DNA of 64,000 nucleotides from Candidatus Omnitrophota bacterium (GTDB taxonomy: Bacteria > Omnitrophota > Gorgyraeia > Gygaellales > Profunditerraquicolaceae): contig JAPLLS010000035.1 in NCBI GenBank assembly GCA_026387435.1, positions 1,692-65,691 on the forward strand. Reading direction: 5' to 3'. The position numbers and the translations under genes are program-made. Positions 1 through 33,172 of this stretch are shown piece after piece (the stretch's first letter is position 1; each line of letters opens with the position of its first letter). A model generated the notes under the pieces. The model did not search any database. It was not told the DNA's origin and saw only the letters and a program-made list of their open reading frames with translations.

Positions 1-3000
1 TCTCTGTGCGCCAGTCGCTTTCCAAGCATCTATCGTTATTGTTTCCTCTTTGAACGCTCCTGTTATCTCTTGTGTTTTGATCGTTCTTGTTATCTCTTGC
101 GGAGCTAAATTGCTGTAACGTTCGGCCATATTCTTCATTTCATTAGTTACCCCGTGCGGACTTACGGCAAAAGCGGTAAGTTCTGCCCATAACGCTCCGG
201 TCAAAGCTCTGGCTCCCAATACTTGCAAATAATTATCGTCATTTATATTTACTCCGAAGCTTTTGAGTTGCTCGCTATAACCATTCTTCAAATCATCCTG
301 GCTATAATTCATAATAGCGGGCAATGCCGGCCGGGCCCAGCCCAAAGCTAACTCTTTTCCGGTAGTTATACCCGCGCCGATCGAAGTAATTATGGCGTGC
401 CTGACTAAGAAATTCTGCCAGGATTGGCTTGCGACTGGTTTTGAAAAATCAACCGGCGTCTTCCACCAAGCCTTAGCCGTAGCCCCACCAGCTTTAACTT
501 CAGGCGCTAAAGTACTGGCCCCAGCTTTAGCCTCAACTCCGCCTAAAGCCTCAACCGTAGCCCCGCCAGCTTTAACTTCAGGCGCTAACGTACTGGCCCC
601 AGCGTTAGCCTCAACTCCGCCTAAAGCACCGTTTCTTGCCGAAGCATATCTCATCAGATTGCTATCATCGGCAAACAACCTGGCCATGAGAGCATAGGAA
701 GCCCAATCAGCTGCGCCAGCTATATTGTTCGGGGAACCCAAGTTTTCATGAAAAAGAGCAACACCTGCGCCTGACCTGACTGCAGCCGCAGTCAACGGCC
801 AGGTCAAAAAAGATATTTTGTAAGCCGGGTTATATAAATTATTGAGGGTCTTGAGCATCTGCGGCTTATCTTCCAGCCAGTTCGCGCTAGTTCTTGCGGC
901 CAGAACCTTTGATGAGATCGTGCTCAAAGCGCCCATTGCTGCCCCATAAGCCAAACCTTGCGTAAAACCTTCGGAATAAGGAGTTATTACCAATGTATTC
1001 ATCCAGTTACGATCTGCTGTCGGATTATTCTTATAATAAACATCCAGACTGCCGGCCTGGGCATTTTTTACGTCGACAGTAATAGTCCCTACTGCCGGTG
1101 CAGTGGTAATGGCGCTAATTAGGGCATTCTTCCCCACATTACGCAAAAAAGTTGTAGCGGGAGTATTCGCAAAATTTGAATTTAAAATATGCGTAGAGAC
1201 CACTTTTGAAATTCCGGCTGTAACAAATATCGCCTCGTCCTGTTCCGGGGAAAGTAATTGGCCGTTATGAAGAATATACGAACCCGCGTTTGCAAAAGCG
1301 GTATGAATAGATCCGGAGACGGCAAACCGGCCTGCGGTGTTCAGAAGTGAAGCAATGCGGGGGTAATTTGTTAAAATCTCTGGGGTTTTGTTTACTCCTG
1401 CATACCAGTCAGTGAATTGAGCTAACTTCGCTAGTCTAGGGGAATTCTTTAACGCCTCGTTTGCCCAGGATAATCCTTGCGACGGAAGGGCCAAAGCAAA
1501 AGCTTCCCCAATTCCGTTAAAACTCGCTGAAGCTATATCATAACCGAGATTGATCTTTTCGCCGGAAGCATATTTCCCGCCTACATTAAAAAGTATGCTT
1601 GCGCCAACTGTCCAGGGAGCTAAACCTGCGGCTGTTGAGGCGATACCAGCTGCCCCGGAAACAAAACCAGTACCAAAACCAGCAGCAAAAGTTCCGGTCC
1701 CGGCACTTGTTGCAGCCGCACCTCCGGCTAATCCCCCGGCGACTCCTCCGGTTACCAAAGCTAACCCCGCTACGACAGTAGCTTCTGAAGCCGGCTTTAC
1801 AAGATAATTGTAGTTGTCGTCGCCTACGAATCCTTTCCAATAAGCCTCATTGCTCTTATCCATACCTTTCCAGGTAGTGGTAGCGCCTTTGAGGATCCCG
1901 GTATTTTCATTCCACAGTTTATCGCCTATTCCGGTATGGGTGACATTATCGTCAACCCACTCTAAACCTCCGCCTACGTGGTCACGCAGCCCCATGAAAC
2001 CCCTGAGTACAAATTTATTCGGCGCTGAGAAAATATCTCCGACCTCTTTATTTCCGGTTAGGTATGCCACATTCGCGATCGCCTCAGTAGGGCCGCCGAT
2101 TAATACCGGGTAAGTTATTGTTGAAAACTTCACGGTTGTCATTGCAGCGGTTTGCCATTTATTTGCGCCCTGCCAGAGGGGATTTATAAGAGATTTACCT
2201 GGGATTTTATTTACTATCGACGCAACCGTGCTGCTTTGGGATAAATAGCTTGATAGCGGCCCAAGCCCTAAAAGAGTGAAACCGCCAAAGCCACCGGAAG
2301 CCGCGGCCTCTAACATTTGATCATTACTCAGAGTTTTTCCGGTTGAAACGTAATGGGCCAGGCTGGAAATTCCCATGTTCAAAACCATCCCGCTTCCCAC
2401 TGTACCGGCATACAATCCTGCGGTGCTTAAACCAGTGGTTCCGAAAACAGTTACCGCCCCGGCGGCAGTAGTTGCTCCGGTCAAAGCCGCGGCTCCGTAT
2501 CCACCGGATATAGCGAACAACCCCACTTTGGCAAAAGCCAGGGGGTCGACTCTGTCCAGACCCGTAAGCTGTTTGCTGGGATCCTGAAGATCCCGGCCCA
2601 GGCCTAACTTTGTCCAGGCGCTCAACATCCCGCCGCCCGGTAGACCGCCGCCGGTGATTCTGTCGATCTTGGCCCCGAATGCTTTGGCTTCCGTACTTCC
2701 GGCTTGAATGCCTCCGGTCAAGTAAGTTATGGCATTATTGCTGCCATAGCCGGTACCCAAGCCGGTGCCGATCGCCCAAAGCCCAGCTCCCACCACGCCA
2801 AACTGGTTGGTATAATGAGTATATTCCGGGCCCAGTCTTGAAGTTATAGATTTAAGTCCATTGTCTTTGATATTGGCGGCAGAGCTTGCCAGGGACCCGA
2901 CTCCGCTCCTGAACGAATCTACTCCTGAGTTGGCCATGCTACTCGCTGTGCCTAGCGCTGATCCGGCCCTGGTCCTGAACGAATCTACTCCTGAGTTGGC

Positions 3001-3906
3001 CATCTTGCTCGCTGTGCCTAGCGCTGATCCAACTCTCTTGCTTATGTCGTCAAAAGCGCCAAAGATATCGCTTCCGCCTTTTACTTTCTGAGCTTCCTGC
3101 TTGCTGGCCGGGCTTAAGTTTAAACGGCGGGATTCTGTTTTGGATCTATCCACCAGGATATAACCGCTGAATTTTGCCGGGACTTCTTGTTTAGCGATAA
3201 ACTCTTCTTTTTCTTTTTCCAGGTAATAGATCTTCTCAGGAGTGACCCGGGTCACTAAAATGAAATGTTCCGCGTTGAGGTGGGCAATAAAAGGGGTGAG
3301 GCTGTTCAGCGATTCATCAATCAATTCCTGGGGTTTGACTTTGAAAGCTTCCAGCTCAAATCCAAATCCGCCGGCTACTTTCTGGATCGCATAAAGGCTG
3401 CTCCTGAGCTGGCCCTTGTAATCTTTGATGTTCCCGCTTAAAACATCGACCATGACCACCTGCAAGGTCAGCTCATACTGATTGGCGGTTTTCTGGCGGT
3501 ATTTTAAAAAGTTATTCAGGGCGTAGACCCCGCAATAATTGCTGACCTGGGTCTCGGAACTTCTTAACCAGTCATAAATCTTTTTAACTTCCCGGGCAGT
3601 GATTATCTTTGTATCTTTGGGGTTTTCTACCCCATCGACAACCAGGTTTTCGGAGATCTTGATCTTCTGTAAGGGTTTGTTGGCGAGGAAATCCAGGGAG
3701 CGCTTGATGTTCTCGGCTACGAAGTTGGAAACATATCCTTCCTGTCCGGCTCCCACCATTTGTTTCGGAGCCCAGAGGATGGTGGGGTCGTAGCCCATAG
3801 CCCAGGAAGCTTGCTCCGGTAAAAAGACCAGGACGACCAGCGCAGCGATCACTCTGATCCATCTGGGGTAGTTGGTCTTCATCACGGCTTTGTCCTGGGT
3901 ATTCAT
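1..3906 (-). CDS. Giant secreted/surface protein, partial (runs off the window start). It has an N-terminal TM anchor, a peptidase C39-like cysteine peptidase domain, and then long Gly/Ala/Ser/Thr-rich repetitive regions.
   Basis: Manual reverse-strand translation from the ATG at 3906 (MNTQDKAVMKTNYPRWIRVIAALVVLVFL...) is open down to base 1. This reading frame is truncated at the window edge, so the ORF track does not list it. A C39-like motif is seen around 3480-3600 (TQVSNYCGVYALNNFL ... AEHFILV). Tandem peptide repeats are seen (SALGTASKMANSGVDSFR x2; GGATVEALGGVEAKAGASTLAPEVKA x2). The plus-strand ORFs 392..697, 1550..1807 and 2861..3091 are antisense shadows of this gene. Confidence 0.6.
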   Translation of the reverse strand, partial: MNTQDKAVMKTNYPRWIRVIAALVVLVFLPEQASWAMGYDPTILWAPKQMVGAGQEGYVSNFVAENIKRSLDFLANKPLQKIKISENLVVDGVENPKDTKIITAREVKKIYDWLRSSETQVSNYCGVYALNNFLKYRQKTANQYELTLQVVMVDVLSGNIKDYKGQLRSSLYAIQKVAGGFGFELEAFKVKPQELIDESLNSLTPFIAHLNAEHFILVTRVTPEKIYYLEKEKEEFIAKQEVPAKFSGYILVDRSKTESRRLNLSPASKQEAQKVKGGSDIFGAFDDISKRVGSALGTASKMANSGVDSFRTRAGSALGTASSMANSGVDSFRSGVGSLASSAANIKDNGLKSITSRLGPEYTHYTNQFGVVGAGLWAIGTGLGTGYGSNNAITYLTGGIQAGSTEAKAFGAKIDRITGGGLPGGGMLSAWTKLGLGRDLQDPSKQLTGLDRVDPLAFAKVGLFAISGGYGAAALTGATTAAGAVTVFGTTGLSTAGLYAGTVGSGMVLNMGISSLAHYVSTGKTLSNDQMLEAAASGGFGGFTLLGLGPLSSYLSQSSTVASIVNKIPGKSLINPLWQGANKWQTAAMTTVKFSTITYPVLIGGPTEAIANVAYLTGNKEVGDIFSAPNKFVLRGFMGLRDHVGGGLEWVDDNVTHTGIGDKLWNENTGILKGATTTWKGMDKSNEAYWKGFVGDDNYNYLVKPASEATVVAGLALVTGGVAGGLAGGAAATSAGTGTFAAGFGTGFVSGAAGIASTAAGLAPWTVGASILFNVGGKYASGEKINLGYDIASASFNGIGEAFALALPSQGLSWANEALKNSPRLAKLAQFTDWYAGVNKTPEILTNYPRIASLLNTAGRFAVSGSIHTAFANAGSYILHNGQLLSPEQDEAIFVTAGISKVVSTHILNSNFANTPATTFLRNVGKNALISAITTAPAVGTITVDVKNAQAGSLDVYYKNNPTADRNWMNTLVITPYSEGFTQGLAYGAAMGALSTISSKVLAARTSANWLEDKPQMLKTLNNLYNPAYKISFLTWPLTAAAVRSGAGVALFHENLGSPNNIAGAADWASYALMARLFADDSNLMRYASARNGALGGVEANAGASTLAPEVKAGGATVEALGGVEAKAGASTLAPEVKAGGATAKAWWKTPVDFSKPVASQSWQNFLVRHAIITSIGAGITTGKELALGWARPALPAIMNYSQDDLKNGYSEQLKSFGVNINDDNYLQVLGARALTGALWAELTAFAVSPHGVTNEMKNMAERYSNLAPQEITRTIKTQEITGAFKEETITIDAWKATGAQR

Positions 3907-4384
3907 ATTATTATAATAATAATAATAATAAAAAATAAAAAAACTTTGGCTAAACTTTTTAAATCTAATTATTAAGCGTGAAAAAAAAATAACTAGTCAC
4001 CGTTTCGGCAGCCTAGTTATCGACGAGAATTCCGTGGCTTTGCTATCCCAAAAAGTTCTTTAAAGGGACAACCTTTTCGTTCGGCACTATAAATATAACA
4101 TATATATAAGTACTTGTCAATACTAAGTTTTAAGTTCAAAGAAAACCCTTTCAAAACAGTTAAAAAAGCCTCTTTGGGCGAAAATTTAAGCCCAAGATTT
4201 GAGCCGAAGAAATAAAATCATGCTCGTTTTCTTCAAACAAAACCGCCTAGCTAAAACCTGAAAACTCGCTTTTCCTGGCCCAAGAGCTTTGCTCCATTTC
4301 ATCCCCACCTACCCGCATGACCCCCAAAAACCACGTTCCCCTCAGCTAACTAACCACTCTAGGTCTGAGTTAAAATGAAACCAA

Positions 4385-4455
4385 TTTAGTAAATTGGACA
4401 TTTATAAATCAACAAACTATTGTCCAATTTCAAAAACAATGTCCAGATTTGTAAA
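4385..4455 (-). promoter_or_regulatory. Promoter/operator region of the giant-protein gene. It contains one direct and two inverted copies of TGGACA(TTTAT). The coding strand reads TTGATTTATAAATGTCCAA, the same motif as at the HTH-gene promoter.
   Basis: ttggacatttataaatcaa at 4394-4412, ttgtccaa at 4420-4427, atgtccag at 4439-4446. The coding-strand sequence TTGATT-N17-CTAAAT resembles a sigma70 promoter. Downstream is an AT-rich leader about 470 nt long containing an (AAT)n run. Confidence 0.4.
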
Positions 4456-4500
4456 TTAGTGATAGAAAGAAGAGCTAAACTGAAGAATTAAACTGAGGAA

Positions 4501-5367
4501 TTAGAATTTCAATTGTCCGCCCTGGGTAAACTTGATCAATATTGGGCCGGCAACAATGATTAAAACCACAGGCAGAATAAAGAAAAGCAGGGGGAATAAG
4601 AGTTTGATCGGCGCTTTTAAAGCCATTTCCTCGCCTTTTTGAAAGCGGATATCGCGCAATTCTTCAGCGTGCATTTTAAGCGCGGTAGTGATCGGAGTAC
4701 CCATTCTATCCGCTTGGAGCAAAGTGCGGACAAAAGAATTGATCTCCTGGCTTTTAATCCGGGCGGCCAGGTTTTTCAAAGAATCCCTGCGGGAAAGGCC
4801 CATCTGGATCTCCCGGACTAAAACTTTCAATTCCTCAACTAATACGCACGGCCGGAATTCTTTAATGACATGATTAACCGCAACCATAAAATCCAGGCCT
4901 GCGCCAACGCAGATATTCAAAAGGTCGATTACATACGGCAGGTCTTTTAAGACTTCTTTTTTTCTTTTCTTGATCTGGTTGGTAAGCCAAAGATCCGGGA
5001 GAAAATAGGCTATGACCATGGCCAAAACTAAGATCCACGGCTGAGGCTGGAAAAGGATATAGAGCCCTAAAGGCAAGCCAACCGTAGACAAAAACTTCAG
5101 GGCCATGAACTGGCTCATGTTCATAGGCCTGCCGGCAGCATATAATTTAAGTTTGATCTTTTCCGTAAATTTTGATTTTTTGACCAGCCGGTCGGTGAAT
5201 TGGGCGGTAAAACTCAAAACTTCTTTAGTGTCGAATTTCTTGGACTCTTCCTGGCCTTTCATCTCCTTAGGTAAAGTGACTTCTTCCAGCACGTGCTTGC
5301 TGGTCAATAAGAAGAAGGCCATGCTGATACAAAGAATCAATAACATCAAAGCCATAACTAAAAGCAT
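4501..5367 (-). CDS. tadC: TadC-like pilus assembly inner-membrane protein (T2SS-F/GspF domain)
   Basis: 288 aa polytopic protein. Its T2SSF-type cytoplasmic domain (…LKVLVREIQMGLSRRDSLKNLAARI…QADRMGTPITTALKMHAEELRD…) is followed by C-terminal TM helices. It lies directly after the TadB-like gene. Confidence 0.8.
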   Translation of the reverse strand: MLLVMALMLLILCISMAFFLLTSKHVLEEVTLPKEMKGQEESKKFDTKEVLSFTAQFTDRLVKKSKFTEKIKLKLYAAGRPMNMSQFMALKFLSTVGLPLGLYILFQPQPWILVLAMVIAYFLPDLWLTNQIKKRKKEVLKDLPYVIDLLNICVGAGLDFMVAVNHVIKEFRPCVLVEELKVLVREIQMGLSRRDSLKNLAARIKSQEINSFVRTLLQADRMGTPITTALKMHAEELRDIRFQKGEEMALKAPIKLLFPLLFFILPVVLIIVAGPILIKFTQGGQLKF

Positions 5368-5368
5368 A

Positions 5369-6220
5369 TTACACCTCTACCTTGCTTAATTTTCTGATCA
5401 GGATTATGCCGATTATTTCCGAACACGCCGCCCAGATCAAAAGCTTCCGGCCAATAGGGCTATTAAGCATTATATCGAAACTTTCAGGATTCACTTGTTT
5501 TACAAACAAAGCAAAAGCGATCGGCAGGATGCACATGATCAGTCCCTGGAGCCGGCCCTGCACGGTTAAAGCCCTGACTTTTCTCTCCAGCTTGATCTTG
5601 TCTCTGATGGTAATAACCAGCTGGGCGAAAATATCGGTTAAATTACCTCCGGTCTCGCGGGCTACGGAAACTGCGGAAGTTATCAGCCCCAAATCGTCGA
5701 TCGGCATTCTTTTCCTCAAATTATCCAAGCACTCATCCAGCGGCATTCCCATGCTGTTTTCCCTGACTACCAGGGCAAATTCTTCACGCATGGGGTCAGG
5801 CATTTCTTCGACCAATATTTCAAAAGCCTGGTTTAAACTCATCCCCGCTTTTAAAGCGCTGGAAAGGATCATTAAGGCATCAACCAGCTGCCCCTGGAAT
5901 TTCATCCTGCGCCGGAAAGCCAGGTTCTTCATTATAGCTGCGGGGATAATGAAACCGACGGCAAGGCCCGCGCCGATGCCGATAAGAGGGAATTTGCGCA
6001 ACAAAACATACCCCGCCAAGGCTAATACCACCGGGGATATGGTAAAGAACGGCAACATCTTGCGCCCCTGGTTGGCCATGAACAGGCGGTCAAGGCCGGA
6101 CGCGGTTGTATCCATTCTTTTTTTCTGAAGCTTGGAATATTTATCCGTGCCTACGGGAATGGACACATAGGCCAAGTATCCGATCGACCCTAAAAAAAGA
6201 ATGAGGATTATAAATACCAT
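5369..6220 (-). CDS. tadB: TadB-like pilus assembly inner-membrane protein (T2SS-F domain)
   Basis: 283 aa; T2SSF domain signature (…DALMILSSALKAGMSLNQAFEIL…SVARETGGNLTDIFAQL…) with flanking TM segments. Confidence 0.8.
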   Translation of the reverse strand: MVFIILILFLGSIGYLAYVSIPVGTDKYSKLQKKRMDTTASGLDRLFMANQGRKMLPFFTISPVVLALAGYVLLRKFPLIGIGAGLAVGFIIPAAIMKNLAFRRRMKFQGQLVDALMILSSALKAGMSLNQAFEILVEEMPDPMREEFALVVRENSMGMPLDECLDNLRKRMPIDDLGLITSAVSVARETGGNLTDIFAQLVITIRDKIKLERKVRALTVQGRLQGLIMCILPIAFALFVKQVNPESFDIMLNSPIGRKLLIWAACSEIIGIILIRKLSKVEV

Positions 6221-6244
6221 TTAACCTCTTGGTTGATTATCTGC

Positions 6245-6442
6245 TTAATTGCTGGTGTGAAGGGGATCATATTGCCTGCCGTGGCCGAATATATCCATCG
6301 ACTGTTTCCATTTCCCGGAAACAGCCCTTTTCAAGTAGGCAGACATGCCTAAAAGAGCTACGCCCACAACCGCTACAAGAACGGCGTATTCGATTAAGGA
6401 CATCCCTTTTAATGGTCTATATTTCATTTTACTGGCTTTCAT
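6245..6442 (-). CDS. flp: Flp-like (class III / type IVc) prepilin
   Basis: 65 aa; KG|MSLIEYAVLVAVVG leader/processing motif (Gly-1, Glu+5), a single hydrophobic helix, and the M-x-Y-x-KRAVSGKWK motif shared with its paralogs. Confidence 0.65.
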   Translation of the reverse strand: MKASKMKYRPLKGMSLIEYAVLVAVVGVALLGMSAYLKRAVSGKWKQSMDIFGHGRQYDPLHTSN

Positions 6443-6677
6443 GGAATATGTTCATCGGTGTGTTGCCGTTTCCCTGGTTAAAAAAATCGACCCCGGTTGC
6501 CGCGGTGCCCGTATTCATGTTACGGGTAGTTTCGTAAGCATTATGCCGGTTGACTATTCTGGCCCCAAACCAGACAAACATTTTGGTGGCCAGGACAACA
6601 AACAAAACCAGCATCACAAAGGTGATCACGAATTCCAGGCTGACCTGAGCTTTTAATCTCACTTTGGAGTTGTCCAT
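6429..6677 (-). CDS. Minor pilin / pseudopilin-like protein (TadE-like size class)
   Basis: 82 aa; KA|QVSLEFVITFVMLVLFVVL N-terminal prepilin-type segment followed by a short polar domain. Confidence 0.5.
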   Translation of the reverse strand: MDNSKVRLKAQVSLEFVITFVMLVLFVVLATKMFVWFGARIVNRHNAYETTRNMNTGTAATGVDFFNQGNGNTPMNIFHESQ

Positions 6678-7627
6678 GTTTTTGTGGGTTCCGCATCTCC
6701 GAAAGTAACGGTTACGTCATCACGGCCGCTTGATGTTATTATAACATGATTTAGAATTTCTGCACTATTTAATGATTCCGTGCTGGTATAACTATTGGCG
6801 TTTTCCACTAAGCCAAGGGTGCTGTCCCTTTTGATATCTTTATTCACCACTTGTTGTACTTCCAGAGTCGAATTCATTTGGCCGGCGTTTGGATTTAAAA
6901 AGTCGATCACTGCAGGAGGATCTCCCGCATTCCCGCTAACATCATAAACCCCATAATACTCTAGGCCGGACCTGGCGCTGTCATATTTCGTCGAGTCTAA
7001 AATACTTTTTTCACAATAATCCTCTAGGCAATCTGTATCATTCATTAAAACCATGACTTGTTTGGTGCCGTATCCCGGCTCCTGCTGATAAACCTTGGTT
7101 TGCGCCAGACTGCCAATATTGTAAATATCGTTGACTCCCTTAAGAATCGAGTCTGTATTCACTATTATGCTCCCGGGCTCGGGTTCCAAAGCTGCAGTAG
7201 TGTACTCCCGGATAACCGGAGCAACAAGATTGCTATCGGGATTAAAAACATATTGCACTGATTCTGAAGTGTCGAGAGTAGCATAATCTAATGGCGTGGA
7301 ATTATTGCTCCAATAAACTCCCTGTGCTCCCGTCCTTGCTTGGACCGTGCTCCTGCCTCCCAGACCAAACATATCCGTAGGATCGGGGGTTTCCACATCC
7401 TTGCGCACATCCACCACTTGAGCCTTAGGGACATTTGATGCGCTGGCCTTTTGCATAGCCCGGCGGAAAGCCTCCATTTTTGTTTCCTGCTCATAATTGA
7501 ACGACACGCCTTGCGAGACCATATAAGCTAAGACCATAAGAAGCAAAGAACCAAAAACCGCCACCTCGGCGAGGCTTTGGCCTTTATTACCCGGCCGGTT
7601 TTCTTTGATCCAACTGAAGTTTACCAT
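6659..7627 (-). CDS. Large minor pilin-like protein with a prepilin N-terminus (322 aa); candidate tip/adhesin subunit
   Basis: N-terminus …NKG|QSLAEVAVFGSLLLMVL carries the same G|QSxxE(+5) motif as the pilin array. A large polar C-terminal domain follows. Confidence 0.5.
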   Translation of the reverse strand: MVNFSWIKENRPGNKGQSLAEVAVFGSLLLMVLAYMVSQGVSFNYEQETKMEAFRRAMQKASASNVPKAQVVDVRKDVETPDPTDMFGLGGRSTVQARTGAQGVYWSNNSTPLDYATLDTSESVQYVFNPDSNLVAPVIREYTTAALEPEPGSIIVNTDSILKGVNDIYNIGSLAQTKVYQQEPGYGTKQVMVLMNDTDCLEDYCEKSILDSTKYDSARSGLEYYGVYDVSGNAGDPPAVIDFLNPNAGQMNSTLEVQQVVNKDIKRDSTLGLVENANSYTSTESLNSAEILNHVIITSSGRDDVTVTFGDAEPTKTWTTPK

Positions 7628-7953
7628 GGGTTTAAATGCTCGCTGCCTGTTCTGGTCTGTTCTACTTGCTGAGAATCTGTCTCGTCTACTGCGTATTCAT
7701 CACCGTTCGTGATAACCTGGTAATTTGAGATGGCCTCGGAGTTCACGTTGGTCTGGATCGACGATAATTCCATGCCCTCTGAATCATAGGGGTTTTCGCT
7801 TATTTGATCCGCAGCCTGCTTGGCCTTGCCCTCAACAGCCCTTTTCATATAGAACTGCATAGCGATAATTCCTGCGGCTATGATAGCCACCAGGAAAGCG
7901 TATTCCAGCGTAGATTGCCCTTTTAATCTAAATTTTTTCATTGGTTTTTTCAT
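7621..7953 (-). CDS. Flp-like prepilin paralog
   Basis: 110 aa; KG|QSTLEYAFLVAIIAAGIIAMQFYMKRAVEGKAKQ. Confidence 0.6.
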   Translation of the reverse strand: MKKPMKKFRLKGQSTLEYAFLVAIIAAGIIAMQFYMKRAVEGKAKQAADQISENPYDSEGMELSSIQTNVNSEAISNYQVITNGDEYAVDETDSQQVEQTRTGSEHLNPW

Positions 7954-7955
7954 CG

Positions 7956-8477
7956 CTATCTGCCTCCAGCACCGGAGTTAGTTACTCCGCTGCGCCCGGC
8001 AGCTCCGCCGCCGCCGAAACCGTTGCTGCCGCCGAAACCGCCGCCGAAACCGTTGCTGCTAGGTGTCGTATCTGCAAACGTTGGAAATGTTTGCGCATAG
8101 AAGACCGGGCTGTGGATAATGCCGTACTTAAGGTACTCTGCCGGCGGTATAATTACGCTAGAGGATGCGTCAGTAACGCTGCTGTCTTGATTGATTTGAA
8201 ACCTTCTGTCGCCCCTGGCGTATTCATTAGTGATAAATTCCTGGTTAGAAACTGTTACGGTGGGATCCGGCGCATAATCCCACCCTACTGTTCTGCCCCC
8301 CTCTGTTTGCGGGTCTATACCCATGGCCTGTAATACAGGAGACCCCAGGTCATCGCTAGTAGACTTGATAATCCCCTGGATCCCTCTTTTAAAATAGGCC
8401 TGCATCGCAAAAACGGTTATCGCGACGCAGCCTATGAGCAAAGAATATTCCAGGAAACTCTGGCCTTTTCTCATCAT
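7956..8477 (-). CDS. Flp-like prepilin paralog with a Gly-rich C-terminus
   Basis: 173 aa; KG|QSFLEYSLLIG…MQAYFKRGIQG… and a C-terminal GFGGGFGGSNGFGGGGAAG tail. Confidence 0.6.
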   Translation of the reverse strand: MMRKGQSFLEYSLLIGCVAITVFAMQAYFKRGIQGIIKSTSDDLGSPVLQAMGIDPQTEGGRTVGWDYAPDPTVTVSNQEFITNEYARGDRRFQINQDSSVTDASSSVIIPPAEYLKYGIIHSPVFYAQTFPTFADTTPSSNGFGGGFGGSNGFGGGGAAGRSGVTNSGAGGR

Positions 8478-8517
8478 TATCCTTAAATTTTTAGAATCCT
8501 ACCCCAGGCAGCGCCAC

Positions 8518-8847
8518 CTATGGTTCAAGTGAAACATAGGTTGTGCTTCCTTGCGAGGTAAAATTCGAGTCAAAATCGCTGATCCGCTCGCCTCTGTTGC
8601 GGATATCCAGATATGTATTTTGCGACGTCTGGAAATCAGAGCTGCTGGAATAATAGTACGGCTCGTATTGACCGGCTTCAGCGCTCACGGATGCAGCGTC
8701 AACAACGTTCCGATAACGGCCGGAAACCCCCCGCTTGACATAAGTAACCATAGCCACAGCCGCCAATAAAACTGCGGCCAGGCAAAAAGCGTATTCAAGC
8801 GCGCCTTGGGCTTTCCGGCTCCTGGCCGGTGATTTACTGGCCTTCAT
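8518..8847 (-). CDS. Flp-like prepilin paralog
   Basis: 109 aa; …KAQG|ALEYAFCLAAVLLAAVAMVTYVKRGVSGRYRN; Ser-rich C-terminus. Confidence 0.55.
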   Translation of the reverse strand: MKASKSPARSRKAQGALEYAFCLAAVLLAAVAMVTYVKRGVSGRYRNVVDAASVSAEAGQYEPYYYSSSSDFQTSQNTYLDIRNRGERISDFDSNFTSQGSTTYVSLEP

Positions 8848-9160
8848 ACAGATCTGCGCCTGCTCCGGTAGTCCACGTTGCCAAAGCTTCCTGACCCGTC
8901 TTAGAACTTACCGAGTCTGCGTTGAGAGTCGTCGTTGCTACCCCGCCAGCTTCCGATTGATGCGCATCTGAGTTTGAGGTAGACGTTAAAGTGGCGGTAT
9001 ATTTCGCCGGCTCAAACTGTTCTCCCATATTATCACCAGCGGCTTTTAATTTCCCTTCCCAACCGCGTTTGACATAAAACTGCATGGCCAAAAGCCCGCC
9101 GACAATAATTGCTACAACTATAGCGTACTCCAGTGTGCTTTGCCCTTTTCTGTTTAACAT
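8834..9160 (-). CDS. Flp-like prepilin paralog
   Basis: 108 aa; KG|QSTLEYAIVVAIIVGGLLAMQFYVKRGWEGKLK; Ser/Thr-rich C-terminus. Confidence 0.6.
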   Translation of the reverse strand: MLNRKGQSTLEYAIVVAIIVGGLLAMQFYVKRGWEGKLKAAGDNMGEQFEPAKYTATLTSTSNSDAHQSEAGGVATTTLNADSVSSKTGQEALATWTTGAGADLYEGQ

Positions 9161-9201
9161 TTTTTTGTCCCTCCTCGTCTAAATAATTTTTATTAAGCGC
9201 G

Positions 9202-9543
9202 TTATTGGGGTGCTAAAGTAGTATCCACAGCACCGCTTTTTTTCCTGGATTCCTCACTGATCCCGTTGTTGTTAAGTCCGCCGTTATTTGCCCAAACAGC
9301 CTGCTTTGTTGAAGAACTGGTCATGTCCGCTTCGGATTGGACATAATACGGTTCATACTGGGCGCCGTCAAAAGTTAAAACTTGGCCCCCGACATCCGAG
9401 CCAGTGCCGGTATGGTCAACGGCATTTCTCACTCTTCCCTGAAGACCTCTTTTAACGTAAGTCTGCATAGCTGCAGCTGCTCCGACAACCAAAGCAAGCA
9501 GTATCGCGTACTCCAAAATATTCTGCCCTTTGCGATTAAACAT
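9202..9543 (-). CDS. Flp-like prepilin paralog (start placed at the internal Met)
   Basis: ORF 9202..9642 carries an implausible N-terminal extension. The prepilin-type start MFNRKG|QNILEYAILLALVVGAAAAMQTYVKRGLQGRVRN begins at 9543. Confidence 0.55.
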   Translation of the reverse strand: MFNRKGQNILEYAILLALVVGAAAAMQTYVKRGLQGRVRNAVDHTGTGSDVGGQVLTFDGAQYEPYYVQSEADMTSSSTKQAVWANNGGLNNNGISEESRKKSGAVDTTLAPQ

Positions 9544-9586
9544 CTTTTCACCTCCCATTATTAGTTTTGCATTATTTTTACTAAAC

Positions 9587-9763
9587 TTATCCCCCCGCTC
9601 CCGGTAATCTGCCGGTGGCGTCAGAAACAGAACTAGCCGCATCGCTTACCCCAGTGTCCACTGCCGGTTTCAGATACTGGTTTGCCCCGTAGGCAATTGC
9701 CGCTACAACTACCGTCAGGACGATTACGTATTCCAAGATACTCTGTCCCCTTTTATTACGCAT
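9587..9763 (-). CDS. Short Flp-like prepilin (58 aa), not in the ORF track
   Basis: Manual translation: MRNKRG|QSILEYVIVLTVVVAAIAYGANQYLKPAVDTGVSDAASSVSDATGRLPGAGG*. Confidence 0.55.
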   Translation of the reverse strand: MRNKRGQSILEYVIVLTVVVAAIAYGANQYLKPAVDTGVSDAASSVSDATGRLPGAGG

Positions 9764-9802
9764 CTTTTACCTCCCTTTCTTCTGTTTACTGTTTTAGATA
9801 AA

Positions 9803-9946
9803 TTACGGACCCTCGTTCACTCTATCTTGAATGAGCTTGAAATTGGCCTTGACCGCCCGATTGCCGTAGAGATACATCGCCGAAAAAGCCATGGCTACTA
9901 CCGCGATCAACAGCGCATATTCAATTACGCTCTGAGCTTTTTTCAT
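9803..9946 (-). CDS. Short Flp-like prepilin (47 aa), not in the ORF track
   Basis: Manual translation: MKKA|QSVIEYALLIAVVAMAFSAMYLYGNRAVKANFKLIQDRVNEGP* (Ala at -1). Confidence 0.5.
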   Translation of the reverse strand: MKKAQSVIEYALLIAVVAMAFSAMYLYGNRAVKANFKLIQDRVNEGP

Positions 9947-9963
9947 ATACACTCCTGTGTTAC

Positions 9964-10377
9964 TCAGGCACTTGCCGCGTTTATCTCTGCCTGAATAATT
10001 CCCACTACTGCCCGCTGCGCATCTGTTAATGTCCCGTTTATCTCTATTGCCTTGTTCCCGGGATCATAGTTGCTTCTGCCGCTTATCAGTATTCCCGCGG
10101 CCACCAATCGCCTGATCTGCGACGGAGTCAAATAAACACTCGTCGGAATAGTTACCTGCGCATCATAACCGGGGACGATCGGGTCGTTAGGATCGACAAC
10201 GGGAACCGAGATCGGTTTTATGCTCGGGGTCAAGCCAAACGAATTGCCGATAGAAGCCGCAGCAAGATTCCTGCCCGTTTGTATTTTGGTCCCCATGCCG
10301 CTTGAGGCCAACAGAATCGCGGCAACGATCGCTGTAAGTATGATTAAATATTCTAAGATACTCTGGCCTTTTTTCAT
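9964..10377 (-). CDS. Flp-like prepilin paralog (137 aa)
   Basis: MKKG|QSILEYLIILTAIVAAILLASSG…. Confidence 0.6.
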   Translation of the reverse strand: MKKGQSILEYLIILTAIVAAILLASSGMGTKIQTGRNLAAASIGNSFGLTPSIKPISVPVVDPNDPIVPGYDAQVTIPTSVYLTPSQIRRLVAAGILISGRSNYDPGNKAIEINGTLTDAQRAVVGIIQAEINAASA

Positions 10378-10379
10378 CG

Positions 10380-10553
10380 CTAATTCCCCGTGCTTATACT
10401 CGGATCCGCATCCAGTAAACCGTTTATTGACCCTACGGCCGCTTGCGTTCCCTGTTGGACCTTGCTTCCAAAATTGCTTGACGCCGCCATGATCGCGGCA
10501 ATTATCACGGTAATGGTGATCACGTATTCCAGCGTGCTCTGAGCTTTTTTCAT
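10380..10553 (-). CDS. Short Flp-like prepilin (57 aa), not in the ORF track
   Basis: Manual translation: MKKA|QSTLEYVITITVIIAAIMAASSNFGSKVQQGTQAAVGSINGLLDADPSISTGN*. Confidence 0.5.
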   Translation of the reverse strand: MKKAQSTLEYVITITVIIAAIMAASSNFGSKVQQGTQAAVGSINGLLDADPSISTGN

Positions 10554-10555
10554 CT

Positions 10556-10735
10556 CTATGATCCTCCGCCCGAGGCTACGCCCAGCGAGTTCACTATCGA
10601 ATCCGCGGCTTTATCCATCCCGCCTTGTATGCTGCTGTGCATATAGCCCGAAGCTGCCATAATCGCGGCAACGATTACGGTAAGGACGATCACATATTCC
10701 AGTATGCTCTGGCCTTTTTTAATTTTAATCATCAT
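10556..10735 (-). CDS. Short Flp-like prepilin (59 aa), not in the ORF track
   Basis: Manual translation: MMIKIKKG|QSILEYVIVLTVIVAAIMAASGYMHSSIQGGMDKAADSIVNSLGVASGGGS*. Confidence 0.5.
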   Translation of the reverse strand: MMIKIKKGQSILEYVIVLTVIVAAIMAASGYMHSSIQGGMDKAADSIVNSLGVASGGGS

Positions 10736-10745
10736 ATGCCCTTCC

Positions 10746-10916
10746 TTATTTGACTATATTTGCGACCGCCTGAATAAAAGTATTGTTGGCGGCATTTTTA
10801 ATATCGACAAAATTATTATTATGTATAAAGCCTAAAGCAATCGCTACCACTATAATGGTAAGAATGAAGTATTCGAATATTGACTGTCCTCTTTCATTAT
10901 AAGTTTTGTCGGACAT
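10746..10916 (-). CDS. Short Flp-like prepilin (56 aa), first gene of the array, not in the ORF track
   Basis: Manual translation: MSDKTYNERG|QSIFEYFILTIIVVAIALGFIHNNNFVDIKNAANNTFIQAVANIVK*. An AGAGGG Shine-Dalgarno sequence lies upstream. Confidence 0.5.
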   Translation of the reverse strand: MSDKTYNERGQSIFEYFILTIIVVAIALGFIHNNNFVDIKNAANNTFIQAVANIVK

Positions 10917-10927
10917 CGCGCCCTCTC

Positions 10928-10962
10928 TAAAAAAAGGAACTGGTTACCAAATAACGGTAGCC
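10928..10962 (-). terminator. Terminator-like hairpin plus T-run in the 5' leader of the pilin array (possible attenuator)
   Basis: The minus strand reads GAACTGGCTACC-GTTATTTG-GGTAACCAGTTC followed by CTTTTTTT. This lies between the predicted promoter (11057-11085) and the first pilin start (10916). Confidence 0.35.
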
Positions 10963-11056
10963 AGTTCTTAGAGTAAACCCATTCAACGATTTTTGGCCGT
11001 GGCTACCATCTCCAAAATCGTACTTTTTATAAAATTACTTTCCTTTAGTCACTAGA

Positions 11057-11085
11057 AATATAACACACCATTGAGCCTTTGTCAA
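11057..11085 (-). promoter_or_regulatory. Sigma70-like promoter for the pilin array
   Basis: On the minus strand: TTGACA (11080-11085), a 17-nt spacer, and TATATT (11057-11062). Confidence 0.4.
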
Positions 11086-11195
11086 TCCGCGCAGGCCTTA
11101 AAAAGAAACCGTTTTCTTATTCAAAACCCCTGGTAATTGCAAAGAATGCGAGTTTCTAAGCATTTAACATGAAGATATTCCGGCGGGAAGAAGAA

Positions 11196-11243
11196 AAAAA
11201 ATACACTTTTTTGAGCCGGAAAAAGTGTATTTTTTCAAAACGC
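11196..11243 (-). terminator. Rho-independent terminator of the HTH gene
   Basis: The minus strand reads AAAATACACTTTTT-CCGGCTC-AAAAAGTGTATTTT followed by TTTTCTTC. Confidence 0.55.
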
Positions 11244-11269
11244 ATTTTAGCTAAATTTACAAGAAAGGT

Positions 11270-12325
11270 CTATTGATAGGCAGCCAAAGTTTCTTCAAAT
11301 TTGAATAATTGGCCTTCGGGAGTAAAAACTCTTTCCTTATTAATACTGCTGACCGCGAACTTAAAATCGTCCTGCCAGACAATATCGCAGATAGCGTTGA
11401 AACTGAGGGGATAAAGAAATTGCACATTAATCATTGAATCCTTTCTTTCAATTTTGGCGGCAAGGCTATAAAAACGATCGCGCATTGCCGAAAGATCCAG
11501 GAATTGGTACACTGAAGGGAAAAAGGACTGTTGCGCTTTCTTATTCAGGCATATGAGGATTTTTTGATATAAGTCATTGATTTCATTGATGTTCTGCGGT
11601 AAACCCAAGCTGATAAGATCCGCGTTTAGCTGATTAAAGGGCAATTTGGCTAACCGCTCATAAACGGAATCAAAATCTTTAATAGCCGGCTCTTTCCCCA
11701 ACATTCTCAAGATATTGGCTTCATCTTTAAGAAGTGGCTTATAAACTTTCAATTGTATCAGGACCCGAAGGGCATCTTCGCTAAGACCAGGCAGACAAAT
11801 TGAGATTTTTTGGGCCAGAAGTCCGGTCAAACCGAATTTATAGTCAACCATTAAGAGAAATATTGCCCCCCCGCTTTCTATGAGCACGCTTGGTTCGGAC
11901 GTCGACCTAAATTCAATTGATTTAATGCCTTCTGGCTCCAGGGCAATTTCTCTCTTTTCAAATTCCGGATTCGCCCGAGCAGGCGAATAAAAATCCGCGG
12001 CTTCGAAAACCGGCTCTTCCTTTGGGCTGACCCAGTTATCAGCTGATTTTTCCTGGGCTGCCGGTTCTTTGATTATGACCAGCGAAGGAACCTCCTGTCT
12101 CGGCAAAGGGGACAAAGCTGTTTTTTGCCTTATTCCTGGCCTTCCGATCCGATTGCTTAAACTATTTGCTTTAATTATCTTGTTTATTGAAGATTTAGAT
12201 ATTTCTACTTTAAATTCTTCTTTTATTAAGGAAACTAACTTGCGGCAGGAAAACTTGGGATTTTCCCTTTTTTTGCTCAAAATAAACTCTTCTATTTCGC
12301 TTTTTAATTTATACGGTTGGGTCAT
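11270..12325 (-). CDS. Hypothetical protein with an N-terminal helix-turn-helix-like domain; candidate regulator
   Basis: 351 aa. The first ~60 aa (…FSCRKLVSLIKEEFKVEISKSSINKIIKANSL…) resemble an HTH. No DDE or other catalytic motif was recognised. Its own promoter carries three TGGACATTTAT repeats. Confidence 0.35.
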   Translation of the reverse strand: MTQPYKLKSEIEEFILSKKRENPKFSCRKLVSLIKEEFKVEISKSSINKIIKANSLSNRIGRPGIRQKTALSPLPRQEVPSLVIIKEPAAQEKSADNWVSPKEEPVFEAADFYSPARANPEFEKREIALEPEGIKSIEFRSTSEPSVLIESGGAIFLLMVDYKFGLTGLLAQKISICLPGLSEDALRVLIQLKVYKPLLKDEANILRMLGKEPAIKDFDSVYERLAKLPFNQLNADLISLGLPQNINEINDLYQKILICLNKKAQQSFFPSVYQFLDLSAMRDRFYSLAAKIERKDSMINVQFLYPLSFNAICDIVWQDDFKFAVSSINKERVFTPEGQLFKFEETLAAYQ

Positions 12326-12333
12326 GTTCTAAT

Positions 12334-12402
12334 TTGGACATTTATTTCAGGTTTTGGACATTATTTATTTTAACTATACCATACTTCTGGACATTTATCA
12401 AT
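12334..12402 (-). promoter_or_regulatory. Promoter of the HTH gene containing three direct repeats of TTGGACATT(T)AT
   Basis: Repeat copies at 12334-12345, 12354-12366 and 12388-12402. The coding strand reads TTGATA-N17-TATAGT (-35 at 12396-12401, -10 at 12373-12378). One repeat overlaps the spacer and two lie between the -10 box and the ATG. Confidence 0.45.
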
Positions 12403-12433
12403 ATTAATAATAAAAGGGAGGGGAATAGCAGGC

Positions 12434-12778
12434 TTATTCTATAATTATAATTTCATCTTTTATTTGAGTTTTACTGGCTTGAATTGCCCCTTCGGGTAAT
12501 TCAATAGTAGTAATTGCCTTAAAGTAGATCGGGCTTACCCGAAACGGCTTGAACCCGGGAGTTAGGGCGATTACCTGCCTATTGCGGTCCAGGAATATGG
12601 CGTCAAAAGTAAAGCGCATGAAAAAAGAGTGGATGGAATTGGAAGGAGTAATAATTAGGCCTTCGCTTGGCTTAAGGCTGGGGCGATTCAATAGCCCGAC
12701 TAATCTCGAAAAGAATGTATCGGCGGTCTTGGCTTTATCCGCAAGAACCGTGTTGCGGGAACGGTTAATTATCCTCAT
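12434..12778 (-). CDS. DUF192 (COG1430) family protein
   Basis: 114 aa; …ADTFFSRLVGLLNRP…GLIITPSNSIHSFFMRFTFDAIFLDRN… matches the DUF192 pattern. Confidence 0.6.
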   Translation of the reverse strand: MRIINRSRNTVLADKAKTADTFFSRLVGLLNRPSLKPSEGLIITPSNSIHSFFMRFTFDAIFLDRNRQVIALTPGFKPFRVSPIYFKAITTIELPEGAIQASKTQIKDEIIIIE

Positions 12779-14958
12779 TATTTAGGTTTAAAGATATCTT
12801 CGGAAATAGAAATACCGCGTCTTTTGATCTCGTCAAAGAAGGTGGGAAGGTTTCCAGTAGGGGTAAAGTAGCCTTCGACTTTGCCCAGCTCGCCTACTCC
12901 GGTTTGCTTGAAGTCGAATAAATCCTGCATTCCAATATGCAGTTCATCGGTCATGCCGGTCAATTCGCTTATCTGGACGACTTTCCTGGAGCCGTCAGAA
13001 AGCCGGGCAGTATGCACGATCAAATCTATGGCCGAAGCGATCATTTCGCGGATAGCGCGCAAAGGTATTTCTATCCCGCCCATCAAGATCAAAGAGTCAA
13101 GCCTGGCCAGAACGTCCTGGGTGGAATTGGCGTGCAGGGTGGTCATTGAGCCGTCATGGCCGGTATTCATAGCCTGAAGCATGTCCAGGGCTTCCAGGCC
13201 GCGGCACTCTCCGATGATTATCCGGTCCGGGCGCATACGCATGGAGTTGCGGAACAAATCGCGCACGGTTATAGCGCCCTTACCTTCTATATTTTGCGGC
13301 CGGGACTCCAGCCTTACCCAGTGCTGATGATGAAGTTTTAATTCCGCGGCGTCTTCGATAGTGAGGATCCTTTCTCCGTCGGGGATAAATTCGGAAAGGA
13401 TGTTCAAGACCGTGGTTTTACCTGAGCCGGTTCCTCCAGAAACGATGATATTCTTGCGGGATATAACACAGATTCTTATAAATTCACCCATCACTTCATT
13501 AAGAGAATTGATGCGGCACAGGTCTGTTACAGTCATCCGTTCCTGGGGGAACTTACGGATAGTCAAAGTCGGGCCGGTCAGCGCCAAAGGCGGGATTATG
13601 GCGTTAACGCGGGAACCGTCGATTAATCTTCCGTCGACCATGGGCACGGATTCGTCTATCCTTCTGCCCAAAGGCGCAATGATCCTCTCGATTATCTGCC
13701 GGACTTGCCCGTTAGAAACGAACTTCTTGGCAGTCAGTTCCAATTTACCGTTTTTCTCCACATATATCTGGTTTTTATTGTTGACCATGATGTCGGTCAC
13801 CAGCGGATCGGCAACCAGATCCTCAAGCGGGCCGAGGCCGACGGCTTCATCGATCATTTCTTTAATAAACTGCTGCCGTTCGGTAAATGAAGGGACAAAA
13901 CTTTCCGTCTCTTCAGCCAGGGAATTGGATATCGATTTTTTGACCTTTTCTTTCAACTCCCGCAATTTCTTCGGGTCGCCGAGCACTACTTCCAGGCGGT
14001 GCAAATCCAGATCCTGGATGATCTTCAAGTGTATGCGCTGTTTCAACTGGTTGAGCTTGTCTTCTTTGGTTAACTGCTTGGGCTGGAGATTTTCCCGGGA
14101 GGAAAGGCTTAACCCTCCCTTGGTCTCGCTTTCCAGAGCCACTTCAAGGCTCTCGTCGGAAAGAGTCTCGATAATAGCGCCCTCAAGCTTCTTATGAACG
14201 GTAAAAAGCTCCTGGTCGGTAAGCAGATCGTCCGCAAGCTTATCGATCGCCAGCGAAGCCTTGGCCCGGGGATTATCCAGTACCAGCGGGTTTCTTCTGT
14301 TTAAAGCCAGGCATACGGCTTTGCCGTCGGAAGGGATGCGCGCAATTATCTCGCCGGGAATGGCGGATTTGACTTCCAGAAAAGATACGCCCCCCAGACT
14401 CTCTGCGCGGTTCAAAACTACTTTCATCATCCGCAAAGGGAAAGCAAAAGACTGCATGATATCTATGGCCTCTTTTACCTGCCCTACAGAAAGCACATCG
14501 GGATTGACGACAAATAAGATCAGGTTGGATTTCCCAAGGGTGGTAAGCAGGACTTTGGTAAAAACGCCGCCGCCTTCGATTACGATATAATCGTAAATTT
14601 TATCCAGCTGGTCGCATAGCGAGGCGATAAATTTCTCTTTTATTACCCCCCGCTGCCGGATATTCAGGGTTATTGGAAGGAAGTCCAGGCCGCTGAAGTT
14701 ATGGTGCAGGATATATTCCTGGATTTGAGTTAAATTGAACTGATCGTTGGTTTCCCATTCCGGGACAATATCGGCCAGGCTATGGACCGGTTTTAAATCC
14801 ATCAGCTTTGCGATATCTCCGGGGAGTTGCAAATCCAGGTCGACCAGAAGAACTTTGCCGTTGCCTATTTTGCGGGCGAGGCTGGTAGCGATATTAACGG
14901 CCAGGAAGGTTCTTCCTACTCCCCCTTTAGGGCTGAAAATGGCTATTGTTTTGGCCAT
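12778..14958 (-). CDS. Fusion protein: ParA/MinD-like TadZ/CpaE ATPase domain (N) + TadA/CpaF type II/IV secretion ATPase (C)
   Basis: 726 aa. The N-terminal half shows [19 protein letters not shown] (deviant Walker A) and [13 protein letters not shown]. The C-terminal half shows Walker [10 protein letters not shown], an Asp box and a His box [13 protein letters not shown], typical of CpaF/T2SS-E. Confidence 0.75.
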
Positions 14959-14959
14959 A

Positions 14960-17814: not shown

Positions 17815-17817
17815 AGG

Positions 17818-33133: not shown

Positions 33134-33172
33134 AAAAGACCCTGAATATTCCTTTTTAGGGTCTTTTTTTTG
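33134..33172 (+). terminator. Rho-independent terminator on the plus strand with no annotated upstream ORF (end of a candidate sRNA)
   Basis: AAGACCCT-GAATATTCCTTTTT-AGGGTCTT followed by TTTTTTTT. Confidence 0.45.

Follow-up and report, generated by a model that had tools for sequence, protein, structure and literature searches.

Full-length giant genes of the Omnitrophota encode N-terminal regions without identifiable domains, except for C39 domains close to predicted signal peptides; upstream of these genes lies a conserved locus resembling a type II secretion system (T2SS) (West-Roberts et al. 2023, 10.1101/2023.11.21.568195). The same authors speculate that the C39 domain may cut the giant proteins into several polypeptides, or cut other substrates. 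Tad loci and poorly conserved giant open reading frames (ORFs) of more than 20 kb occur across the phylum, and peptides from giant ORFs were enriched in attached cells of Velamenicoccus archaeovorus (Seymour et al. 2023, PMC10066038). A 2026 preprint describes a cluster of 24 proteins with a PF03412 architecture and a Tad cassette beside a giant gene. Here we describe the 5' part of a gene of this kind, encoded on the minus strand at one end of a 64,000-nucleotide stretch of contig JAPLLS010000035.1 from a Candidatus Omnitrophota bacterium (the window), together with the Tad/Flp-like pilus locus that precedes it.

The gene is an Omnitrophota giant gene of the kind already described, and ordinary for the phylum in this respect, because its signal peptide and C39 domain, its upstream locus and its taxon all match the published descriptions; the first-pass annotation had rightly pointed to this comparison. 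We think it probable that the region as a whole works as follows. Transcription would run from a strong sigma-70-type promoter through a 104-nt leader RNA whose default fold is an intrinsic terminator, so that read-through into the giant gene would need some factor. A Sec-type signal peptide (aa 1-36) would take the N-terminus across the inner membrane, and a C39 cysteine peptidase domain (Q120, C125, H214, E230) would fold. A leader-like segment would then fill the substrate groove of the protease and be cut after G278, freeing an N-terminal module of ~240 residues from the body. The body would be the cargo, continuing for thousands of residues past the window, and the adjacent Tad/T2SS-like machine possibly exports it. 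From the literature and the genomic context, we anticipate that it serves as a cell-surface or coat protein for contact with other cells.

The candidate new details are the cleavage site, a leader RNA common to the giant gene and a pilin gene, and clusters of TGTCCA repeats. Neither a cis double-glycine site nor the leader RNA nor the operator-like repeats were found in the parts of the West-Roberts and Seymour papers that were searched.

The giant gene and the adjacent Tad/Flp-like locus

Re-translation of the reverse complement of positions 1-3906 gave the uninterrupted frame that had been claimed, stop-free over 1,302 codons, a length that random codons would leave open with a probability of ~7e-28. 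Homologues at two other loci, L001 (MNTQDK) and L029 (MDTQTK), share the N-terminal residues, which supports the ATG at 3906 as the start. The frame was also thought to cover just the start of a giant gene, and its relatives agree, as the homologous frames all run off their contigs. A scan of species-representative genomes (one genome per species) found nine related loci (L001-L009), in which these frames leave the available sequence at 497-3,722 aa; the longest homologous ORF, on metagenome contig L029, exceeds 4,148 aa and leaves its contig too. Among 5.8 billion proteins searched by word index and by profile, relatives appeared as N-terminal fragments only, annotated at source as 'cysteine peptidase family C39 domain-containing protein, partial'. 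Most relatives with an organism name come from metagenome-assembled or single-amplified genomes of Omnitrophota/Omnitrophica, and three bins carry other names (Deltaproteobacteria, Planctomycetales and Dehalococcoidia).

The giant proteins for comparison are of the archaeovorin type, whose type sequence is a 39,678-aa protein of V. archaeovorus LiM. Like these, the window protein belongs to the Omnitrophota, combines a signal peptide with a C39 domain and has a T2SS/Tad-like locus directly upstream. In both, the sequence past the N-terminus is poorly conserved and poor in domains, and the genes are so long that assemblies truncate them. They differ in that the window protein is known from 1,302 aa, whereas archaeovorins are longer than 30,000 aa and carry SecA-DEAD, glycosyltransferase, glycoside hydrolase, methyltransferase and NUDIX domains as well as many transmembrane helices. 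Pfam searches detected none of these domains, whether in the 1,302 aa of the window protein or in the N-terminal ~2,600-4,100 aa of five homologues (L001, L005, L006, L008 and L029), and in these homologues no family besides C39 was found.

The gene had been placed downstream of a pilus locus, and it begins 594 bp after the tadC stop at 4501. In order of transcription, the locus encodes a peptidyl-prolyl isomerase, RcpC/CpaB, a secretin with TonB_C, a CpaE-CpaF fusion ATPase, DUF192 and a helix-turn-helix (HTH) protein, followed by three small Flp-type pilins, several minor pilin-like ORFs, a 322-aa ORF (orf322), TadB and TadC. From the HTH gene through the pilins, orf322, TadB and TadC to the giant gene, this order is kept in related loci as far as their contigs extend. 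The locus includes two unusual fusions (12778-16864, minus strand), one of a ParA/CpaE-like ATPase with a CpaF/T2SSE ATPase (726 aa) and the other of an RcpA-type secretin with a C-terminal TonB_C (634 aa). The three tandem pilin genes (10380-10916, minus strand) encode 57, 59 and 56 aa with the class-III-type signals MKKAQSTLEY, MMIKIKKGQSILEY and MSDKTYNERGQSIFEY; such genes are easily missed because they fall under the default ORF cut-off of 60 aa.

These signals are of the prepilin-peptidase type (K/R-G|Q-[SA]-[ITV]-[FL]-E-Y) and have no double-glycine site, so that the suggested role of the C39 protein in processing the pilins finds no support. The N-terminus of the giant protein differs from those of the pilins in having a Sec-type signal. 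No Tad-component profile or prepilin signal was found in the giant protein, NCBIfam matches lying far under their cut-offs.

The adjacency of the giant gene and the Tad locus could also reflect no more than common regulation. The giant protein would then not be exported through or with the Tad machine, and its body would be anchored in the inner membrane by G/A-rich segments as a coat or platform. We consider this possible, although doubtful. The literature reports dozens of predicted transmembrane helices and many membrane-anchored topologies for giant proteins (PMC10066038; 2026 preprint), and weakly hydrophobic G/A-rich stretches are present here at aa ~369-389, 461-509 and 709-763. However, only two segments of the 1,302-aa fragment exceed 1.6 on the Kyte-Doolittle scale, and both the synteny with tadB-tadC, kept as far as contigs extend, and two shared cis-elements (described below) suggest a functional link between the giant protein and the Tad machine.

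Probable export signal, C39 domain and a candidate cleavage site

The N-terminus has the layout of a Sec signal peptide, with an n-region containing K6, K10, R15 and R18, an h-region of ~12 residues (VIAALVVLVFL) and a c-region P-E-Q-A-S-W-A followed by M-G. Its Kyte-Doolittle maximum is 1.81 (aa 15-33), and the c-region is nearly invariant in the alignments; F28, P30, Q32, W35 and A36 do not vary. This segment was initially read as a transmembrane anchor; the hydrophobic stretch is indeed there, but the residue layout and the -3/-1 rule make a cleavable signal peptide more likely. With such a signal, the C39 domain would be placed outside the cytoplasm. In an AlphaFold2 (AF2) model of aa 1-300, the conserved extension that follows is poorly predicted at aa 37-56 (predicted local distance difference test, pLDDT, below 50) and mostly helical at aa 60-100 (pLDDT 68-78).

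The C39-like papain-type domain of the first-pass annotation is genuine, as judged by profile, fold and the catalytic Cys and His, and it stands outside the classical ABC context. Pfam PF03412 matches at 31.5 bits (gathering threshold 22; E 1.8e-7) and is the sole Pfam family at E<=1 in the 1,302 aa. The match in the window protein covers only the His half, and homologues score 31.9-42.3 bits over profile positions 10/11-126/131, Cys included. The AF2 model has a predicted template-modelling score of 0.70 and is confident over aa 60-280 (10-residue mean pLDDT of ~61-92 in aa 100-280). Its best Foldseek match is 6mpz, the double-glycine protease LahT150 with leader bound (E 1.6e-6, target TM-score 0.73). 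The top matches, which also include PCAT1 (7n87, 6v9z) and the C39-like 3b79, range in E from 1.6e-6 to 9e-4 with target TM-scores of 0.65-0.74 for single-domain chains.

Both catalytic residues that were to be expected are present. C125 and H214 do not vary in alignments A1, A6 and A8 or across 17 sequences with identities as low as 29%, and H214 aligns with the His of 6mpz. C125 is the single Cys among 1,302 residues, and we argue from this that it has been retained for catalysis. Nor did Pfam detect an ABC transporter domain in the 1,302 aa of the window protein, or in the five homologues over their first ~2,600-4,100 aa.

With PCAT and stand-alone double-glycine proteases (LahT150, 6MPZ; PCAT1, 6V9Z and 7N87), the domain shares the papain-like fold, the Pfam family, the Q-x4-C...H arrangement and a candidate substrate of leader pattern. 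Unlike them, it has no ABC fusion and follows a signal peptide, so it is probably located outside the cytoplasm. Its presumed substrate lies in cis, immediately C-terminal, the cargo is giant rather than a small peptide, and the third catalytic position is Glu.

Bacteriocin double-glycine leaders, the substrates of C39 peptidases, follow the consensus L-S-x-x-E-L-x-x-I-x-G-G. Cleavage occurs after the Gly-Gly/Ala/Ser of the leader, which has hydrophobic residues at -4, -7 and -12. About 25-30 residues past the C39 domain, the giant-protein family carries the motif L-S/D-x-x-E-S/A-K-x-I/V-x-G-G/A, which in this gene reads L-S-x-x-x-x-x-E-A-Q-K-V-K-G-G. The site fits the leader consensus at -12, -11, -8, -4, -2 and -1 and departs from it at -7. 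Among the 14 members of alignment A8 long enough to show the site, 11 have [IV]-x-G-[GA] with an upstream L-[SD]-x-x-E-[SA]-K. All members of the gene's own subfamily except L009 (V-K-G-S) have [IV]-x-G-G, and the distant subfamily has [IV]-x-G-A; the linker around the motif is otherwise variable in both length and sequence. In the AF2 model, the linker is ordered up to G278 (block pLDDT 78 and 73), with a helix at 269-274 (-10 to -5), and pLDDT drops to 34 past residue 280. We infer from the motif and the model that cleavage in cis could occur after G278, splitting the N-terminal module from the body, with the GG segment possibly docked in the active site.

There are mechanistic analogies for such a step. 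MARTX toxins contain a C80 cysteine protease domain, and the adhesin LapA is freed when the periplasmic cysteine protease LapG (C93) removes its N-terminal retention module. These, too, are very large exported glycine-rich proteins in which a cysteine protease cuts near a short motif. They differ from the window protein in protease family, in motif and in their type I secretion; the comparison concerns mechanism alone.

It is also conceivable that the C39 domain acts in trans, either on other sites in the body of its own or a neighbouring molecule or on separate double-glycine peptides, the G-G/A after the domain being no more than a hinge at the domain boundary. In the proposal of West-Roberts et al., the giant protein is split into several polypeptides or other substrates are cut. 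In 5 of 10 homologues, the body contains slightly more [IV]xGG sites than expected (z ~2.5-3; 5-7 sites per ~3,400 aa), and L001 shares one additional I-S-G-G-Y site at aa 466-470. This enrichment is weak, however, and absent in L029, L003 and L007. Agreement of the post-domain site with the leader consensus extends over six positions, beyond the GG itself, and no separate gene for a small GG-leader peptide was seen in the locus. On balance, action in trans appears unlikely.

Less likely by far is that the domain is catalytically silent and binds, chaperones or membrane-retains the nascent giant chain, in the way that HlyB handles haemolysin through its C39-like domain. Chaperone C39-like domains exist and have been cited for giant proteins, and the C39-like 3b79 is among the fold matches. 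In addition, Glu (E230) replaces the usual Asp at His+16, which distant members have, and Q120, kept in the gene's own subfamily, is deleted in distant subfamilies. Known silent C39-like domains such as that of HlyB have lost the Cys. Here, the Cys and His are invariant family-wide, the sole Cys of the 1,302 residues is the catalytic one, and the best matches by fold and sequence are active double-glycine proteases.

Leader RNA and repeat clusters upstream of the gene

The proximal promoter of the giant gene (Table 1) is near consensus, with 11 of 12 hexamer matches and an extended -10; it is identical in L001 and conserved across all leader copies. The leader RNA downstream of it scores 93 bits against its own covariance model (R1). 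In L001, the promoter-leader block is near-identical, and the middle of the spacer (3907-4500) has diverged. An alignment of 28 sequences shows compensatory changes at six of the nine pairs of hairpin P2, with 96.8% of cells paired. It supports the terminator as well, whose upper stem and loop GGCUGCCGAAACGG lie outside the search pattern and are nearly invariant. All 28 copies have the terminator fold as their minimum-free-energy structure. An alternative, anti-terminator fold uses both terminator arms and is compatible with all sequences, although it is 4-18 kcal/mol weaker. We read the leader as a default-off transcription attenuator common to pilin and giant gene, whose read-through would be conditional.

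The organization of the leader resembles that of terminator-type riboswitches such as GEMM-I, which also have a promoter-proximal structure, unpaired stretches that are highly conserved, a variable-loop hairpin with covarying pairs, an intrinsic terminator and an alternative fold involving both terminator arms, and which likewise stand before pilin- or adhesin-like genes. Both contain the string GCAAAGCC, and a c-di-GMP-I riboswitch was suspected on this ground, but Rfam gives no support for it. Searches of the window at gathering level, of 1 kb at E<=1 and of a 121-nt slice at E<=10 returned no Rfam family for the leader. It also differs from GEMM-I in that its alternative fold is invariant, and no published description of this RNA was found in the literature searched. 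A genuine c-di-GMP-I-GGC aptamer (RF03167) is present elsewhere in the window, at 33042-33123 on the plus strand (64.2 bits; gathering threshold 59). Downstream of it lie a terminator-like hairpin with a U-run (~33133-33170) and a 204-aa ORF (33186-33800).

In the related loci, nhmmer located the leader before the giant gene in L001, L002 and L005 and before the first small pilin gene in L005-L008. A pattern scan of metagenomes added 25 loci with a leader (L010-L034). Most copies lie 0-19 nt ahead of a 56-78-aa pilin starting MTFKKINKRGQAIFEYFIL, and five precede the giant gene (the window, L001, L002, L005 and L029); the copy in L012 follows tadB-tadC, and the contig ends before any giant gene. 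One copy lies outside a Tad locus, at L028 4818-4942 (plus strand; metagenome contig Ga0074199_1002273). There it precedes uncharacterised proteins of 366 aa, with a signal-peptide-like start, and 1,042 aa, and Glu/Gln-tRNA synthetase-like genes flank them.

The intact leader of the window is found only at the giant-gene position, as the copy at the pilin position, 15 nt upstream of the first pilin gene, has decayed; nhmmer matches this degenerate copy over 10852-11088 (E 9e-6). Where the leader stands before a giant gene, the first codons of the pilin are still present but without their ATG, and in the window such a remnant of a pilin-gene 5' end lies between the leader and the giant gene.

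The promoter of the giant gene was described in the first-pass annotation as carrying the same TTGAT..AAATGTCCA motif as the HTH gene of the pilus locus. The motif does occur at both sites (~4394-4412 and 12387-12401), but at the giant gene it lies ~490 nt upstream of the ATG, away from the proximal promoter. It is part of clusters of three repeats. Clusters after tadC are present in the window, L001-L005 and L029, and in L001 the repeats are kept while their flanks diverge. Triplets upstream of the HTH gene, with spacings of ~20 and ~12 nt, are present in the window and L005-L008 and, by position, in L010 and L026. A search for an HTH-gene remnant in the spacer 3907-4500 gave nothing significant; the operator repeats and the promoter alone are colinear.

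The HTH gene has a fixed position in five related loci, with 31-35% identity, and the first ~60 residues of its product resemble the HTH of IS630/Tc3 transposases. We rejected TGTCCA as an IS630 terminal inverted repeat, because the HTH protein lacks a DDE domain, no inverted copy was found downstream of the gene, and the gene position is fixed in the five loci. Because the TGTCCA repeats overlap its promoter-like site, the HTH protein is a candidate autoregulated regulator of the locus. Co-regulation of the giant gene with the pilus, proposed at first on the shared motif, is plausible, with TGTCCA(A) clusters at both sites in many loci and a leader element in common with the major pilin gene. 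Since the leader also precedes the major Flp pilin gene in related loci and the repeat cluster is shared with the HTH gene, the pilus and the giant protein are probably switched on together.

Table 1. Sequence features of the giant gene and its upstream region, in window coordinates
Feature	Position	Strand	Basis or remark
Giant gene, 5' part, 1,302 codons	1..3906	-	In-frame stop absent; stop codon past window start
Probable Sec signal peptide, aa 1-36	3799..3906	-	Hydropathy and conserved c-region
Conserved N-terminal extension, aa 37-103 (MGYDP...FVAENxxRSL...)	3598..3798	-	Many invariant columns, alignments A1 and A6
Peptidase C39 domain, aa 104-255	3142..3597	-	Pfam PF03412 and Foldseek
Q120	3547-3549	-	Oxyanion Gln position
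C125, catalytic	3532-3534	-	Invariant
H214	3265-3267	-	Invariant
E230	3217-3219	-	Stands where Asp is usual (His+16)
Double-glycine-leader-like segment, aa 263-278, ending V275-K-G277-G278	3073..3120	-	Conservation; proposed cis cleavage after G278
G/A/S/T-rich body, aa 279-1302, Cys-free, fast-diverging	1..3072	-	Composition, hydropathy
Tandem duplication, 66 nt x1.9, aa ~293-334	2907..3030	-	Unit GSALGTASxMANSGVDSFR; TRF 94% matches, score 227
Tandem duplication, 78 nt x2.1, aa ~1094-1147	468..627	-	Unit ALGGVEAxAGASTLAPEVKAGGAT; TRF 93% matches, score 285
Pilin-gene 5'-end remnant	3944..3975	-	TTAATAATTAGATTTAAAAAGTTTAGCCAAAG vs TTAATAATGACTTTTAAAAAGATTAATAAAAG in pilin copies; ATG to ATT (alignment A3)
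Leader RNA, 104 nt	3984..4087	-	UGCCGAACGAAAAGG, P2 hairpin, AGCAAAGCCACGG, linker, terminator hairpin (GGCUGCCGAAACGGUGAC), U9
Sigma-70-type promoter	4092..4120	-	TTGACA, 17 nt, TG-n-TATATT
Three TGGACA/TGTCCA repeats, operator-like cluster	4391..4450	-	Includes TTGAT..AAATGTCCA
Tad/Flp-like locus	4501..18708	-	Pfam, NCBIfam, small-ORF reading
First Flp-type pilin gene	10746-10916	-	Small ORF
Degenerate second leader copy	10931..11052	-	R1 20.4 bits, E 0.057
HTH gene, 351 aa	11270-12325	-	
Three (A/T)AATGTCCA(A/G) repeats	12334..12401	-	Overlap putative HTH-gene promoter, TTGATA-17-TATAGT

Divergence of the body and implications

The G/A/S/T richness noted for the body holds, with values of 45-60% in aa 300-600 and 700-800. 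The exact peptide repeats that had been described as low-complexity tandem repeats exist as well, but Tandem Repeats Finder (TRF) resolves them into two two-copy duplications and not into extended arrays. Conservation falls sharply past ~aa 280, the conserved part being aa 1-280. We compared the body (window 1-3906) with L001 (7465-18360) and L029 (1687-14130). Identity to L001 is 90% over aa 1-260 and ~55% over aa 261-820, with TadB and TadC 91% and 87% identical, and nothing is alignable past aa 820. Identity to L029 is 65% over aa 1-574, and aa 729-1302, for which L001 has no homologous part, match L029 aa 435-934 at 36% (E 2e-74). L001 and L029 have only their first ~570 residues in common, a stretch that all three proteins share.

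An exhaustive HMMER search of aa 281-1302 against 1.84 billion representative proteins gave five weak matches, all within aa ~330-806, and an AF2 model of aa 561-830 (4-sequence alignment) was uninformative (pLDDT 34). Given the comparisons with L001 and L029 and the few database relatives, the body is mosaic and evolves very fast, in agreement with the poor conservation of giant ORFs reported by Seymour et al. The mosaic relatedness suggests segment replacement or large indels besides point divergence.

It is highly improbable that the frame results from a chimeric assembly or belongs to a pseudogene in decay: although the window truncates the gene, assemblies break at such genes (the Logan contig below ends at the gene start) and relatedness to L001 is undetectable past aa 820, independent assemblies contain homologous frames of about 1,470-4,148 aa with the same start, the 1,302 codons are stop-free, and the later part of the body is homologous to L029.

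Several points weigh against the sequence of events that we propose. An exact-match look-up of TadC found as its sole contig a 5.5-kb Logan contig that ends at the giant-gene start, so that the gene is known over 1,302 codons; an identical tadC is present in Logan SRR20698647. The signal peptide is a reading of sequence, and cleavage after G278 draws on sequence and a model. The alignment behind that model is small (11 sequences), and docking of the GG segment is read from its confidence profile. Three distant relatives have V-W-G-[ND] in place of G-[GA], and the loss of Q120 in distant subfamilies and the Glu at the third catalytic position belong here too. Known C39 domains are cytoplasmic and joined to ABC exporters, and we know of no characterised precedent for a periplasmic one. 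For the leader, the conserved 5' part of the RNA alignment was partly set by the search pattern, and the specific pairs of the anti-terminator fold are all invariant, so that covariation lends it no support. The leader could equally be a protein- or sRNA-dependent attenuator.

Other features of the window include a 6S RNA (RF00013) at 58569-58728 (76 bits) and three tRNA genes (28861-28935, 32813-32897 and 45104-45174), all on the minus strand. A 1,275-aa protein (22779-26606, minus strand) has two PIG-L (GlcNAc-PI de-N-acetylase) stretches and a glycoside hydrolase family 3 domain, and is flanked by ORFs of 531 and 734 aa without a Pfam match.

A conserved head of 280 residues on a divergent body marks the body as fast-evolving and probably a surface that faces host or prey. 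A more far-reaching interpretation, which we put forward tentatively, has two parts. The N-terminal cassette would be a self-cleaving maturation module, with bacteriocin-type leader and protease in cis and outside the cytoplasm, that frees giant proteins once they are exported. The leader common to the giant gene and the major Flp pilin gene would be a new class of ligand- or protein-responsive riboregulator and, with the HTH/TGTCCA operator, would act as the on-switch for the apparatus with which Omnitrophota attach and prey.

Omnitrophota giant genes are among the longest known. The candidate self-cleavage site (after G278; GG or GA family-wide) offers a concrete handle on maturation, and the HTH protein and the TGTCCA repeats are a candidate regulator-operator pair. 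The leader, which is short, highly conserved and terminating by default, may represent a new family of regulatory RNA and might account for the joint gating of pilin synthesis and of transcription through so long a gene.

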